From: Eledone cirrhosa
Lineage: Eukaryota
Reading direction: 5' to 3'
DNA length: 64,000 nt
Assembly: GCA_964016885.1 (NCBI GenBank)
Contig: OZ024742.1
Location: 366,730,001 to 366,794,000 of the forward strand
Shown here piece by piece: positions 22,564 through 59,364 of this stretch. A model generated the notes under the pieces. The model made no database searches. It saw nothing but the letters and a program-made list of their open reading frames with translations, and was not told where the DNA came from. How positions within the stretch are numbered: position 1 is the stretch's first letter; every line of letters begins with the position of its first letter. A program made the position numbers and the translations under genes.

Positions 22564-23253
22564 GATATATATATATGTATAAATATATATATATATATAT
22601 ATATATATATGTCTCTCTCTCTCTCTCTCTATATATATATATATATATGTCTATATATATATATATATATATATATGTCTATATATATATATATATATAT
22701 ATATATATATATATATATATATATATATATATATATATATATATATATGTCTATATATATATATATATATATATATGTCTATATATATATATATATATCT
22801 GTCTATATATATATATATATATATGTCTATATATATATATATATATATATATATATATATGTCTATATATATATATATATATATATATATATATGTGTGT
22901 GTATGTATATATATATATATATATATATATATGTGTGTATGTATATATATATATATATATATATATATATATATATATATATATATATATATATATATGT
23001 ATATATGTATATATATATTTAAAATATATATATATATATATATATATATATATATATATATATATATATATATATATATATATATATATATGTATATATG
23101 TATATATATATTTAAAATCTATATATATATATATATATATATATATATATATATATATATATATATATATATATATATATATAAACAAGGTTTAGCAAAT
23201 AATGAAAAAGTTTCAAAATAAATTTTAAAAAATTAACTTTACCTACTATAGTT

Positions 23254-23336
23254 ACCTTAACCGATCGGTTTCGAATCCCACAAATAAACGGGGGCCTTAC
23301 GGCCTTCGTTGCAAAGAGAGATTCTCGTCAGAAGGT
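23254..23336 (-). ncRNA. type I hammerhead ribozyme (GUU)
   Basis: Minus strand: ACCTT-CTGACGA-GAATC...GATTC-GAAA-CCGATCGG-TT-AAGGT. Confidence 0.85.
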
Positions 23337-23667
23337 TCTTTTCGTTCGAAGAATATAAAATTCTTGAATTTAAATGACGAACTAGCGCTATTCAAAACTG
23401 TTCCGGAGATGAGGGTGAAATGAGGTGGAATCAATTTTTTCAAGGGCCGAAGTAAAGACTCCTCTCTTGTTGAGTGCAAACTTGGTCGTCCTGACTGCTG
23501 CTAGTGATAGCCGCTGCTAGTTTGACCTACCTCCTTCTGCCTCTATCTTTACTTCGGCCCTTGAAAAAATTGATTCCACCTCATTTCACCCTCATCTCCG
23601 GAACAGTTTTGAATAGCGCTAGTTCGTCATTTAAATTCAAGAATTTTATATTCTTCGAACGAAAAGA

Positions 23668-23750
23668 ACCTTCTGACGAGAATCTCTCTTTGCAACGAAG
23701 GCCGTAAGGCCCCCGTTTATTTGTGGGATTCGAAACCGATCGGTAAAGGT
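23668..23750 (+). ncRNA. type I hammerhead ribozyme (GUA)
   Basis: ACCTT-CTGACGA-GAATC-(42-nt loop with GGCC-GTAA-GGCC hairpin)-GATTC-GAAA-CCGATCGG-TA-AAGGT. Confidence 0.88.
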
Positions 23751-24342
23751 AACTATAGTAGGTAAAGTTAATTTTTTAAAATTTATTTTGAAACTTTTTC
23801 ATTATTTGCTAAACCTTGTTTATATATGTTCTGGCTCGTTAATTTATTAACCTGCCATTGAACCACATTGGCATTTGGTTGGACAATACATGTGTCTCTT
23901 TGCGCCTTGTGCGTGAAGGAATACATATCCTATTATATATATATATATATATATATATATATATATATATATATATATATATATATATATATGTGTGTCT
24001 ATATATATATTGTTATACTTTGGGAGGGTCATGCAATATCGTAAGTCTCTCTCTCTCTCTCTCTCTCTATATATATATATATATATATATGTATATATAT
24101 ATATATATATATATATATATATATATATATATATATATATATATATATATATGAATATATATATATATGTATATATATATATATATATGAATATATATAT
24201 ATATGTATATATATATATATATATATATATATATATATGTATATATATATATGTATATATATGTATATATATATATATATGTATATATATATATATATAT
24301 GTATATATATATATATATGTATATATATATATATATGTATAT

Positions 24343-25191
24343 ATATTTATTAAAATAACAGATTAAAGTTTAAGCAAAGAATCGCTGCTTTCACCCTTAA
24401 CGGGATCTTCTGAAGCTAACAAAGTCAATCTGTAAACGCAGAACTGGATATTTCAAAAACCGTTGCAACCGGAGGAAGACAGGAAGACGATACTTTGGTT
24501 CGTGGAAACGTTCGCTGGCAAAGAACGGGAAAAAACGAATATAATACGTCATTAATAGGAGCGGTGAAAAACAATTACGCGCAAAGATAAAACCACCTTT
24601 ATGGTATAAAAAAGTTCGTAGACTAATGTTCTCTTAGGTTGTTCATAGAGACGTTCTCTGGCAATGAACGAAAAAACGAAGATAATAAGTCATATGTGGA
24701 GCGTGGAGAACAATAGCACGCAAAGACAAAACCATGTAAATGGTATAGCGGAAATCGTAGACTAAAATTCTAACTAGGAGACCAAATGAATCTCCGCTAC
24801 AGAGTTAAGAACAAAGTAAATAAATACCATACAGAAGTAATAGAAACAAATAAATACATACACGCAAACAGATACGTACATACACAAGCATACGCAAAAC
24901 CTTACCATGGTATACAAAACCACGCACATATAAATATGTGTGTTTTGTCTTTGCGCGTAATTGTTTTTCACCGCTCCTATTAATGACGTATTATATTCGT
25001 TTTTTCCCGTTCTTTGCCAGCGAACGTTACCACGAACCAAAGTATCGTCTTCCTGTCTTCCTCCGGTTGCAACGGTTTTTGAAATATCCAGTTCTGCGTT
25101 TACAGATTGACTTTGTTAGTTTCAGAAGATCCCGTTAAGGGTGAAAGCAGCGATTCTTTGCTTAAACTTTAATCTGTTATTTTAATAAATA
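24343..25191. mobile_element. fold-back element: about 250-bp inverted arms, about 345-bp spacer, degenerate hammerhead-like core per arm
   Basis: 24343-24594 versus 24941-25191 differ at only a few sites. Each arm has CAGAAGA-TCCC-GTTAA-GGGT-GAAA-GCAGC. Confidence 0.92.
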
Positions 25192-25574
25192 TTTGCTCTA
25201 CGTTTCTTATATATTTGATATATATTTTCCTTATCGAGCCCTCTTTGGATTTTAGTCTTCAATTTTATTATTATTACTATATGTATATATATATATATGT
25301 ATATATATATATATATGTACATATATATATATATATATATATATATATGTATATATATATATGTATATATATATATATATATTTGTATATATATATATAT
25401 AAATATATATATGTATATATATATATATATATATATGTATATATATATATGTATATATATATATATATATATATATATGTATATATATATATATGTATAT
25501 ATATATATATATATACATATATATATATATATAAATGTATATATATATATATGTATATGTATATGTATATGTAA

Positions 25575-56738: not shown

Positions 56739-56900
56739 GTGTATGTGTGTATGTATGTGTGTGTGTATATATATATATATATATATATATATATATATAT
56801 ATATATATATATATATATATATATATATATATATATGTATATATATATATACATATATATATATATATAGAAGCGGTTACACAACAGTTAGTTCACCATA

Positions 56901-56940
56901 CCGAGAACAATTGTTTCACCCTCGCGGATCTTCAGCTCGG
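56901..56940 (-). ncRNA. minimal hammerhead (GUU) downstream of the 57201-57930 PLE
   Basis: Minus strand: CCGAG-CTGAAGA-TCC-GCGA-GGG-T-GAAA-CAATTG-TT-CTCGG. Confidence 0.75.
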
Positions 56941-57200
56941 GATGTGTATGTTTATAGGAACAGGAAGGACAACCGTACGAACGTGCATGCGCGGAAACTT
57001 GGTCACTTCACACAGGCAATACTAGACTGTGTGCGGAATGTGTAAGGGAGATAACTGCGAAAGTCCGGAAAGTTTTTAGTTTGAAAATACAATTAAAAAA
57101 ATTAAAAATAAAATTACAAAGAATCAGTCCGGAGCCTTGTAGTTATGCAATAGATGTTTGGTGACGTGTGGACAACGTGTGAAAAATTCACTCCTCGTGT

Positions 57201-57930
57201 TTAGGCAATCACTATTCCGTAATCACTTAATCGTTCGTAGATACATAAACCACACGTCGGATTTCCCCTTGCGTATGGCTTGGACTTAGTGATGGCTTTC
57301 CATTGAATGGTGTAGTCTATACTTGAGTCCTTGAGGGACCATACGTGGCTCGCGAGTTTCGTCGATGAACGTCTGTCCGGGTACTTAAAGGTCGACTGGT
57401 GGTTCAGTAAGCGTTCCTTAAATCGGCCCTCCGCCATACCCACATTGGATTTGACCTCCTGTGGTTGATTTGGTCGGTTGGAAGTGACCACAGCTTCATA
57501 AACTACAGCGGGTGTGTTGCATTGCTGTTGAAGGGGACAAGCTTCGGGCTTACGACAAGAGCACCCTGGTTGGATGTTGCTCTTAGGGCTGTGGGTGATG
57601 TGGGCCTTCATGTTCTTAGCACAGGAGTGTCCTAGTTTTATTTTGTGTCGGTTAAAGATGGAGCGGTATTTATGACCTACGGGAAAGTGTCTATCTAAGA
57701 GGGCTAGAACTTTTTTGCCCTCATTGGTTTTAACGTTGAGTGAGAAGGGAGGATAGAACCAGATGGTTTGTCTATTGTTACGCTTTCTTTTCTTATTGCT
57801 GTTGTTGATAGTGGGAGAGTAAGTGATAGGTTGTGAGAAGCCGCTGTTAGCTAACGCCGTGTTATAGTAGGGTGCCGCCCTGTCAAAGATAGCCTTATAA
57901 AAGGAGAGGTTTGAGATTCTAGTACTGATA
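57201..57930 (-). pseudogene. Naiad-like PLE thumb, linker and endonuclease fragment
   Basis: APYYN.AL..SGF, WFYPPFS, CSCR...CPL...C, VVYEA, FKER..NH and CGLC. Confidence 0.88.
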
Positions 57931-58046
57931 TGTGTGTGTGTGTGTGTGTGTGTGTGTGTGTGTGTGTGTGTGTGTGTGTGTGTGTGTGTGTGTGTGTGTG
58001 TGTGTGTGTGTGTGTGTGTGTGTGTGTGTGTGTGTGTGTGTGTGTG
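57931..58046. repeat. (GT)n microsatellite
   Basis: Direct. Confidence 0.99.
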
Positions 58047-59364
58047 AATGTGTCTGTTGACATCTAGAATATAGCTTAAGAGAAACTTGAAGATAATGGT
58101 ATGATGGGCACTCACAATTTTGAACTGGTCTATAGAATTCTTTAGGCCTTTGTCACCCTAAGTAGAACTTTAAAGAATTAGCTTTTAAAGAATTTCCCTT
58201 TTCTTTAAATCCATCAACCATGACCGACCCCAACGATCTTATAGACACCTGAAATATAGGTATTGTTAGCTTAAGAGAAACTTAAAAATAAGGAGTGGCA
58301 CCCCATTCTGAACTTGTTTATAGAATTCTTCCTGTCTTTGTTACTCTAAATATAAATTATAGCTTTAAAGAATTAGCTTTTAATGAATTCCCTTTTCTAT
58401 CAACCAATGACTTCTACCCATCCCACTCCCCACCCTCTCCTACCACCTCAAGAGACCTATAAATACCATATTCATTTTTTGATACCCAGATTCCTGAGCA
58501 CACCATAATTTAACTTGGTGTCCTTGAAATATGTATAATGAAATAAATATGGTTTTATAAATATAGTTTCCATTTGTTAATATATCGTATTTTTACTCCA
58601 ATAATTTGTTGAGTGCTTTATATCAGTTATAAAAATATTTGCTTGTTGTATCCCAACAATTTAAATAGAACTTCTACATATATATATATATTTATGTATG
58701 TATGCGTATGTATGTATATGTATATGTATATGTATATGTATATGTATGTGTGTATATATATATATATATATATATATATATATATATATATATATATATA
58801 TATATATATATACATATATATATGTATATATATATATGTATATAAATACAAATATATATATATAAAGTAACACAGTGGGGGAAATGTAAAGAAATCTAAA
58901 GATTGCGTCTGTAAGGAGGTCAATCCTACTGAGAAGTAGTTTATAGTGTAATTATAAGTTGATGTCAATTAACACCTGCTGAACGCTGATTGATATATTG
59001 ACCTAGTTCAGTCTTGGATTTAAAGAAAAAAATTAGTTTATCTCAGGTTTTGATATTTTGTTTGGAGAGAAAAATGTGGAGGATTAGAAGGATATATTAT
59101 CTGTCTATCTATTTGTATATCTATCTCTATGTATATCTGTATATCGCTCTCTCTCTATCTATATGTCTATCTATCTATATATATATATATATATATATAT
59201 ATATATATATCTATCTATCTATCTATCTATCTATCTATATATCTATCTATCTCTATCTATCTATTTACCTCTATGTATATCTGTATCCTCTCTTTCTCTC
59301 TCTCTCTCTCTCTCTCCCTCTCTCTCTCTCTCTCTCTCTCTCTCTCTCTATCTATCTATCTATA

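Follow-up and report, generated by a model that had tools for sequence, protein, structure and literature searches.

Head-to-head, one-tailed pairs of Penelope-like element ends in (TA)n tracts of the Eledone cirrhosa genome

Inverted pairs in the window

The window, a 64,000-nucleotide stretch of the Eledone cirrhosa genome (assembly GCA_964016885.1, contig OZ024742.1, positions 366,730,001 to 366,794,000, forward strand), contains eight inverted pairs, at 23181-23826, 24343-25191, 30258-31574, 31681-42192, 32801-33071, 33351-33794, 50342-58497 and 54610-54870 (Table 1). All eight had been listed in the original prediction, and all were recovered by self-BLAST with simple repeats masked and by sequence inspection. 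They represent seven sequence families, described beforehand as unrelated, and nucleotide similarity between these families is indeed at most weak. The outward polarity was also confirmed, 8/8 pairs having a minus-strand left arm and a plus-strand right arm. Because each pair repeats a single sequence in inverted form, the location of hammerheads on the minus strand at left and on the plus strand at right is the same fact and not a second one.

Table 1. Coordinates of paired arms, tails and associated features in the window
Feature	Position	Strand	Remarks
Family 1 (485-bp retrozyme-like unit), tail-less arm	23180..23458	-	278 nt; hammerhead 23331-23259
Family 1, tailed arm	23459..23936	+	366 nt; tail 23825-23936
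Family 1, tailed-arm hammerhead	23673-23745	+	palindromic stem III
Family 2 (Hydra-type PLE 3' end, by motif), tail-less arm	24345..24943	-	578 nt including 'spacer'; degenerate hammerhead-like core
Family 2, tailed arm	24942..25283	+	246 nt, plus tail 25191-25283
Family 3, tailed arm	30120..31465	-	tail about 30120-30254; long arm including spacer
Family 3, tailed-arm variant-core hammerhead	about 30285-30345	-	
Family 3, tail-less arm	31471..31575	+	broken hammerhead core; terminus (TC)n(TA)n
Family 4 (Hydra-type, by motif), tail-less arm	31681..34833	-	pieces 31681-32800, 34299-34833; hammerhead 31761-31715
Family 4, tailed arm	34837..42267	+	hammerhead 42112-42158; tail to 42267
Family 4, tailed-arm pieces	34837-34973, 35595-36040, 39591-40014, 40904-41147, 41754-42196	+	
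Family 5 (Hydra-type, by motif), tail-less arm	32789..32952	-	22 nt short of usual end
Family 5, tailed arm	32954..33198	+	hammerhead 33008-33056; tail 33107-33198
Family 6 (Neptune-type, by motif), tailed arm	33295..33602	-	261 nt, terminus at the family's 5' hot spot; tail 33295-33350; hammerhead about 33545-33503
Family 6, tail-less arm	33601..33794	+	203 nt; minimal hammerhead about 33601-33643
Family 7 (Hydra-type, by motif), tailed arm	50259..50900	-	tail 50259-50324; hammerhead about 50395-50342
Family 7, 3' UTR piece and ORF C-terminus	55900..56740	-	CxCx5C linker, GIY-YIG; likely continuation of left arm 50259..50900
Family 7, right arm	57930..58497	+	cut off inside hammerhead core
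Family 5, tailed, 5'-truncated 3' end	58497..58675	+	fused to family 7 right arm
Family 5, second pair	54610..54872		left arm 54610-54737 (-), right arm 54738-54872 (+)

Pair 31681-42192 is a single insertion whose centre is at 34833/34837, and both of its arms subsequently received nested insertions; those in the tail-less arm entered at its own (TA)n and split it. The second family 5 pair has a left arm without its outer 55 nt and a tail-less right arm. The family 7 arms of 50342-58497 are 94.4% alike, compared with 85-94% to other copies, and it is possible that this pair represents two independent insertions, although the ORF piece at 55900-56740 favours one event.

Neighbouring copies were then compared across the genome in samples that consisted of best or first-listed matches rather than random draws. 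The expected excess of divergent over convergent pairs was found for families 5 and 6, with 47 divergent and 2 convergent pairs (47/49, p=4e-12). Within 7 kb, family 5 had 20 divergent, one convergent and one direct neighbour (first 100 listed of 725 exact motif matches), and family 6 had 27, one and three, respectively (first 100 listed of 4422). An exact motif of family 1 matched only 4 places, and DNA searches were therefore used instead. The proposed (TA)n flanks were likewise observed: (TA)4 adjoins the outer ends on both sides in 67/86 scored pairs, against a background of 14.5% of random 22-nt windows at the same loci. Such flanks would hide any target-site duplication.

The original prediction had regarded the uniform polarity as possibly new. 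The architecture is not new: the head-to-head arrangement, insertion into (TA)n, hammerhead pairs on opposite strands and a tail on one side only have all been published. Arkhipova et al. 2013 (PMC3846280) call head-to-head 'the most frequently observed' PLE arrangement, and Craig et al. 2021 (PMC8557442) describe it in their Fig. 2 legend; hammerhead pairs on opposite strands, with spacings of 100-700 bp, have also been reported (PMC4209133). The insertion units described in the first two papers comprise a pLTR, an adjacent inverted 5'-truncated copy and an optional tail. They have in common with the pairs here the head-to-head 5' inverted copy, partial tandems, the one-sided tail, junction palindromes, microsatellite targets, and a pLTR and tail overlapping the ORF start, as in family 6. 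Ends within the ORF start like those of family 6 are also found in an anole element (PMC11167929). What is new here is quantitative, namely the tail count and the finding that the two arms of a pair are coupled in length and in minor variants.

Hammerhead motifs and parent elements

A hammerhead or hammerhead-like core had been predicted in both arms of every pair. It is intact on both arms at 23181, 31681 and 33351, but not in the other five pairs (3/8). In pair 32801, the left core is intact but stem I is weakened, its first pair being lost. The core of pair 30258 reads CCGA(A/T)GA (CCGA in 31/38 copies) and its right arm is without GAAA, while that of pair 24343, CAGAAGA in 37/37 copies, is without a proper stem I and would qualify as hammerhead-like at best. 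The right arm of pair 50342 ends after CUGA, where it is joined to a family 5 3' end, and neither arm of pair 54610 carries an intact motif. Across sampled copies, the core is canonical in families 1, 4, 5, 6 and 7 (34-65 copies each; family 1, 24/24 intact), with variants U4C in family 3 and U4A, without stem I, in family 2. A strict motif scan of the window found 9 CUGANGA motifs, and the motifs of families 6 and 7 and of the left arm of 32801 were identified by eye outside that scan. The motifs of the pairs were absent from the 150 of 288 Rfam matches listed, which were dominated by microsatellite matches and included one hammerhead, at 34033-34104, below the gathering score and outside the eight pairs.

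The arms continue into RT-GIY-YIG frames rather than transposases, in agreement with the claimed Penelope-like origin and the claimed lack of a transposase. They are 5'-truncated PLE ends in five families and, in a sixth, a retrozyme-like tandem unit; arm 5' ends range from 24 to 3383 nt, reflecting 5' truncation. [quoted passage not shown] Tandem or partial-tandem pLTR copies were found at four loci: family 6 serves as pLTR in a tandem element of 4423 bp whose RT-GIY-YIG frame is open over 1318 aa (L085), and pLTR-ORF-pLTR partial tandems were found for families 5 (L065), 2 (L291) and 7 (L310). No parent of family 3 was found among 36 loci (4 in longer stretches), and at one locus (L296) a Hydra-type frame is followed, 1.4-1.5 kb downstream, by a relative of about 75% identity. 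This frame had been considered as the family 7 parent and was rejected, as it stands upstream of the family 3 relative. The RT and GIY-YIG frame calls rest on motif reading; Pfam returned a sub-cutoff RVT_1 match for the Neptune-type frame of the window and none for the Hydra-type fragments.

By motif, families 2, 4, 5 and 7 appear to be Hydra-type. Family 5 has a CxCx5C linker, DKT, and RWR in place of RWK, with no CCHH seen; the linker is also present in families 2 and 7, and its third Cys is substituted in the family 4 copy at L260. The Hydra clade as described in section 11 of PMC8557442 shares with these families the C-terminal GIY-YIG, CxCx5C, (TA)n insertion and hammerheads, whereas repeat periods here are 3.2-4.0 kb rather than '<3 kb' and the family 2 hammerhead, unlike those described there, is degenerate. 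Family 6 and the element at 36586-39582 are probably Neptune-type, judging from their CX4CxxC linker, CCHH, DKSG, C-terminal GIY-YIG and Asn-rich insert. The linker and CCHH of the family 6 frame correspond to the CX2-5CxxC and CCHH of the Neptune/Nematis clades, and the insert resembles that of rotifer Penelopes in PMC3846280.

Family 1 occurs in arrays of 10 or more 485-bp units, and one array contains a strand switch. Like non-LTR retrozymes (Cervera and de la Pena 2020, PMC7229834; Li et al. 2026, bioRxiv 10.64898/2026.07.22.740005), it consists of tandem type I hammerhead units, but the unit is longer than the about 300 bp typical of retrozymes (PMC7229834). It also forms PLE-type head-to-head one-tail pairs; the word 'inverted' is absent from the main text of PMC7229834.

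Tails and junctions

Two discrete 3' ends, with and without a tail, were found in all seven families. The tails are 55-135 nt long, compared with 30-40 nt in excerpts describing the published PLE insertion units, where the tail is called 'optional' or 'often' one-sided and no count accompanies it. Among 96 distinct divergent pairs from 250 loci, exactly one arm was tailed in 92, both in two and neither in two, in a count restricted to pairs in which both arms reach the short end and score at least 40 bits. About half would be expected, given that 46/99 unpaired copies were tailed (p=3e-23), and the excess persisted without the 11 pairs obtained with a tail-containing query (82/85, p=7e-22). 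Longer stretches yielded nine more one-tail pairs, two with neither arm tailed and one unclear, and family 1 had one tail in 6/6 pairs. An inverted tail was present upstream of 10/53 tail-less unpaired copies and 0/44 tailed ones. Three of these ten hold only the distal part of the tail, and no inverted tail was found within about 5 kb of any of 11 tail-less family 7 copies.

Arm-to-arm joins are direct (0-6 nt). It had been proposed that the pair at 54610 keeps the spacer of 32801, and that a fold-back can therefore propagate as a unit. Neither claim was supported: the junctions differ (186/152 and 182/137 nt from the 3' end) and carry different variants, the 'spacer' is ordinary element sequence, and a recurring junction has its tail on opposite sides. 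The broader idea that fold-backs are MITE-like units copied whole by PLE proteins or a DNA transposase could draw on the occurrence of the 33351 junction at five places and of the 32801 junction at two, and on family 6 inter-motif distances that cluster at 178-181 and 200 nt. However, of the five places with the 33351 junction two are tailed on the long arm, two on the short arm and one on neither, and their subfamily variants differ; the second 32801-like place differs by 7.5%; and the 23181 junction is unique. Within the 178-200-nt clusters the junction sequence varies from locus to locus, and for this reason they were not accepted as signs of unit propagation. Only one coordinate pair recurred among 60 junctions, with differing sequences, and the copies did not have the combination of uniform size, common termini and common internal junction by which MITEs or fold-backs were tested for. 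Together with the frames into which the arms run, these observations largely refute unit copying, which is extremely unlikely. The PLE-end identity of the arms and the lack of unit propagation are, jointly, held with high confidence.

Equally improbable are independent side-by-side insertions or fold-back assembly artefacts. (TA)n tracts do draw repeated insertions, as indicated by 13 convergent neighbours in the 250-locus sample, but the 47:2 polarity, the one-tail rule and the direct junctions argue against both explanations, and, unlike the halves of a mirror-image chimera, the two arms are dissimilar in tail, flank and nested insertions and diverge at up to 5% of bases.

Arm lengths and integration

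In 60 cleanly mapped pairs the longer arm was the tailed one in 20 and the tail-less one in 22, and the arms were within 10 nt of each other in 18; this map covered families 1, 2, 5 and 6, four pairs were unmapped, and 5/65 had unclean junctions. Equal arms were found in 17/46 pairs against 5.8 expected and, outside hot spots, in 5 against 0.56; the hot spots of families 5 and 6 are at about 185 and 260 nt from the short end. In 83 pairs, a minor variant was common to both arms 91 times, compared with about 17 expected, and was on one arm only in 160 cases; the arm difference was 2.7% within pairs and 3.7% between them. Median arm divergence was 0.2% in equal-armed and 1.1% in unequal pairs (p=0.004), and 1/18 equal pairs reached 2%. 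The low divergence of equal pairs is consistent with pairs that are born as perfect palindromes and then decay, or with gene conversion, which would also inflate the shared-variant count.

We interpret the pairs as two independently 5'-truncated PLE ends, head to head in (TA)n and one-tailed, that probably arose in one integration event by two-ended priming (probability about 0.55); the chances that both ends were primed on the same RNA appear even. The GIY-YIG endonuclease would cut both strands in (TA)n. One 3'-OH would prime at a distal internal start site, giving the tailed arm, and the other at a proximal internal start site on the same RNA, giving the tail-less arm. Each cDNA would stop early or run off the shared RNA 5' end, which could account for equal arms and for the family hot spot, a putative RNA 5' end; the two cDNA ends would then be joined, through an overlap of 0-6 nt or with a few bases added, and the host would fill in. 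The hammerhead, 50-130 nt upstream of the start sites, would be a passenger, uncleaved in the template. Priming from both ends of one break, as originally proposed, is retained as the leading mechanism, but priming on RNA 3' ends is not supported, because the arms end at internal positions of the transcript, which in family 6 are both within the first 81 nt of the ORF. The parent elements, the one-tail count, the arm lengths, the shared minor variants and the published in vitro data speak for two-ended priming. Points against it are the commonness of partnerless copies, the low divergence of equal-armed pairs, the minor variants confined to one arm and the short 5' palindromes of some family 5 copies.

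[quoted passage not shown] No start-site difference between top and bottom strands was seen in that system, and the ordering of start sites is therefore not shown in vitro.

In LINE-1 twin priming, a single RNA is reverse-transcribed from both break ends and the products are joined by microhomology; because synthesis from the second primer begins far upstream, the inverted parts scarcely overlap. Unlike these products, both arms here duplicate the same 3' region.

A strong rival, although less likely, is snap-back of a single cDNA. Having started at the distal (tail) site, it would fold over at its 3' end and be copied as far as the proximal site, where the second target end is engaged, with asymmetry and unpaired copies attributed to later deletions in unstable palindromes. 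Such snap-back accounts for one tail per pair, for shared variants, for equal arms at arbitrary positions (809/809, 2023/2023, 681/688, 538/543 and 137/137) and for the youngest appearance of equal pairs. Junction palindromes have been read as self-priming in PMC3846280, and short 5' palindromes occur here: the family 5 copies at L004, L014 and L019 have only a 20-60-nt palindrome at the 5' junction, a snap-back signature. However, simple snap-back from a tailed cDNA does not predict tail-less arms that exceed tailed ones, by up to 2.8 kb, in about as many pairs as the reverse. Tail-only inverted pieces and the 53 tail-less unpaired copies would all require secondary deletion, divergence is already at most 1% in 18/39 unequal pairs, and reverse transcription can start directly at the proximal site in vitro (PMC11167929). 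Antisense transcripts as self-priming templates, proposed for the same geometry in PMC3846280 and compatible with the junction palindromes, are a very unlikely explanation: one arm should lie within the other at both ends, which was not observed, and in vitro the reaction works on sense RNA (PMC11167929).

Returning to two-ended priming, we tentatively suggest, at slightly less than even odds, that PLEs integrate by ordered twin priming, in which one ribonucleoprotein engages both break ends on a single RNA, one end always starting at the distal internal site and the other at the proximal one, leaving a strict one-tail signature in Hydra and Neptune clades and in a retrozyme. If true, this integration signature would show that retrozymes are moved by Penelope proteins. 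The origin of PLE tandem and inverted structures is termed undefined in PMC8557442; the near-strict one-tail rule and coupled arm lengths are numbers that every PLE integration model has to fit, and both are testable in the existing in vitro system (PMC11167929).

For annotation, PLE fold-backs are easily misfiled as MITEs. Copies number in the thousands, and 40-54% of those sampled are in pairs, from which this genome could potentially produce much long double-stranded RNA; folding prediction suggests that the ribozyme would be masked inside a read-through hairpin.

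Inverted pairs and their parent elements

All eight inverted pairs of the original prediction were recovered by self-comparison and by reading of the sequence, and in all eight the arms, which are 5'-truncated element ends joined head to head, face outward. Hammerhead or hammerhead-like cores had been claimed for both arms of every pair; hammerheads are intact on both arms in three of the eight, and in the others are weakened, variant, truncated or broken. The pairs sit in a mosaic of (TA)n tracts and fragments of retroelements, on a contig of 379 Mb from an animal genome of 3.0 Gb. 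Of the two wide pairs, 31681-42192 is one insertion, invaded later, and 50342-58497 probably is too. The former has its true centre at 34833/34837 and near-equal arms, each interrupted at the element's own (TA)n, and the left arm of the latter probably continues into an ORF piece at 55900-56740. Read-through RNA of the pair at 33351 was predicted to form a single long hairpin (-342 kcal/mol) with the hammerhead buried, which is expected of any inverted repeat and makes no statement on expression.

The arm families are high-copy in their own genome, with 725 exact motif matches for family 5 (the pairs at 32801 and 54610), 4422 for family 6 (the pair at 33351) and 547-1860 first-look candidates for each of the others. 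When arms were traced upstream, they ran into RT-GIY-YIG frames. The parent of family 6 is a 4423-bp tandem Penelope-like element (PLE), of which the family forms the pLTR. Its 1318-aa open frame is closest to a protein labelled Octopus vulgaris (70% identity), which suggests a cephalopod host, and is Neptune-type because it has a CX4CxxC linker and CCHH. Families 2, 4, 5 and 7 share a CxCx5C linker with the Hydra clade, which is reported to insert in (TA)n (PMC8557442), clade names throughout being assigned by motif, not by tree. Family 1 occurs as tandem arrays of 485-bp units, one hammerhead in each, and in this resembles a non-LTR retrozyme. No parent of family 3 was found in 36 loci examined for that family.

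Of the neighbours lying no more than 7 kb apart among the 200 matches listed for families 5 and 6, 47 were divergent, 2 convergent and 4 direct, so that the predicted outward polarity is real and well above chance. Of 86 pairs, 67 had (TA)4 adjoining both outer ends, the background being 14.5% of random 22-nt stretches in the same loci. The polarity is nevertheless not new: PMC3846280 describes inverted pLTRs of which one bears a tail, along with palindromes at the junction, and names head-to-head the most frequent arrangement; the Fig. 2 legend of PMC8557442 gives the same arrangement and terms the mechanism undefined; and PMC4209133 reports hammerhead pairs on opposite strands, 100-700 bp apart. 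Other literature includes a retrozyme preprint (10.64898/2026.07.22.740005), PMC7229834, PMC13282606 and PMC8969392.

Distribution of the tail between arms

Copies of each family end 3' in either a short or a long form, the long one extended by a tail of 55-135 nt; in family 6 both ends fall within the ORF's first 81 nt. Across 250 loci, exactly one arm carried the tail in 92 of 96 distinct divergent pairs, three of them from the window itself, and 46 of 99 unpaired copies had it. Without tail-biased retrieval the count was 82 of 85. Longer stretches added nine one-tail pairs, two with none and one unclear, and family 1 conformed in six of six pairs. An inverted tail was found upstream of 10 of 53 tail-less unpaired copies versus none of 44 tailed ones. 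No count of this asymmetry was found in the literature searched; the early papers in which the tail was defined may hold one. The one-tail rule, near-strict in the different clades and in the retrozyme-like family as well, gives models of the mechanism a constraint that can be tested.

Arm length is not predicted by tail side, the tailed arm being longer in 20 pairs, the tail-less arm in 22 and the two being equal to within 10 nt in 18. Equal-length arms are in excess (17 of 46 pairs versus 5.8 expected), and minor variants are common to both arms in 91 cases versus about 17 expected, with 160 cases confined to one arm.

Junctions and formation of the pairs

The proposal that fold-backs propagate as units is unsupported, and with polarity already published, the architecture is a known PLE insertion pattern. 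The supposed spacer at 32801 belongs to the upstream part of the element itself and occurs in unpaired copies too, and 54610 differs from 32801 both in its junction (186/152 at 32801, 182/137 at 54610) and in its variants. Probes allowing one mismatch placed the 32801 junction at two places, that of 33351 at five and that of 23181 at one. Because the tail changes sides and subfamily variants differ among the five places, the 33351 junction must have formed anew repeatedly. Junctions look alike because 5' ends cluster at a hot spot, which takes up 19 of 42 arm ends for family 5 and 18 of 50 for family 6 and is shared by unpaired family-5 copies. The hot spot may be the transcript's 5' end. In family 6 it lies 250-272 nt away from the short end (~33590-33602 in the window), at a motif resembling the YY1 site, which would suit a transcription start. 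Junctions are mostly blunt or overlap by 1-6 nt. At three family-5 loci (L004, L014 and L019) the copy's 5' junction bears no more than a palindrome of 20-60 nt, joined in L004 directly to the short end's last bases.

The one-tail, arm-length and shared-variant data together imply that the two arms must arise together, in order. Twin priming is known from LINE-1. Here, each of two DNA ends would prime at its own start site on a single RNA. This would be the simplest extension of PMC11167929, in which a PLE protein cuts and extends both strands and two internal start sites bracket the tail, ribozyme cleavage not being needed; its probability is put at about one half. No difference in start sites between strands was seen in PMC11167929, which counts against ordered twin priming.

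Equal-armed pairs are also the least diverged (0.2% versus 1.1%, p=0.004), a further point against twin priming and in favour of a less probable route, snap-back with later palindrome decay; gene conversion fits the low divergence as well. Palindromes can decay by central deletion. In twin priming and snap-back alike the second target end engages at the proximal site, and its template is RNA in the former and a fold-back DNA copy in the latter.

Other elements in the window

Features outside the eight pairs, with one family-1 array from elsewhere in the genome
Feature	Position	Details
Hydra-type PLE	52100-54612	LINE-1-like inversion geometry; plus-strand ORF piece 53760-54541
Neptune-type PLE copies	36586-39582, 49252-50170	frame broken by stop and frameshifts
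Satellite	1-10470	48-bp unit, ~219 copies, higher-order duplication ~3.6 kb
LTR-retrotransposon-like element	26708-29449	580-bp direct repeats, 99.3%
Related LTR-retrotransposon-like element	18439-19934	integrase-like frame 18516-19487 (minus)
~600-bp repeat, three copies	17414-17930, 34988-35590, 41150-41752	96-98%; each in TATG-type microsatellite
tRNA-like match, possibly SINE head	43049-43120	Rfam 40.3 bits
Non-LTR retrotransposon frames/fragments	45543-48494 (minus), 20538-22489, 43872-44918, 40014-40904, 59606-61051	CR1-, RTE-, Tx1-like by eye
Assembly gap	~14424-14623	200 N, within (TA)n-rich tract
Further hammerhead or hammerhead-like motifs	16242-16286, 34051-34081, 43688-43621 (minus), ~48945, 39345, 49940	
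Family-1 array	G000:C1:149205134-149210362 (L127, L131-L134)	at least 10 485-bp units, minus, head to head with plus-strand units

The geometry of the Hydra-type element reflects either an internal template jump or loss of most of one arm by deletion; its plus-strand ORF piece ends at the start of a minus-strand piece, with ~10 nt of overlap, followed by a 73-nt 3' UTR piece. The Neptune-type copies, nested in the family-4 right arm, have their last ~25 nt and hammerhead style in common with family 6. One non-LTR retrotransposon frame is open over 983 aa. The sole hammerhead among the Rfam rows listed is at 34033-34104 (37.7 bits). A palindrome at 25577-25744 is apparently a ninth head-to-head pair, without a ribozyme; it is related to 49060-49228, directly downstream of the motif near 48945.
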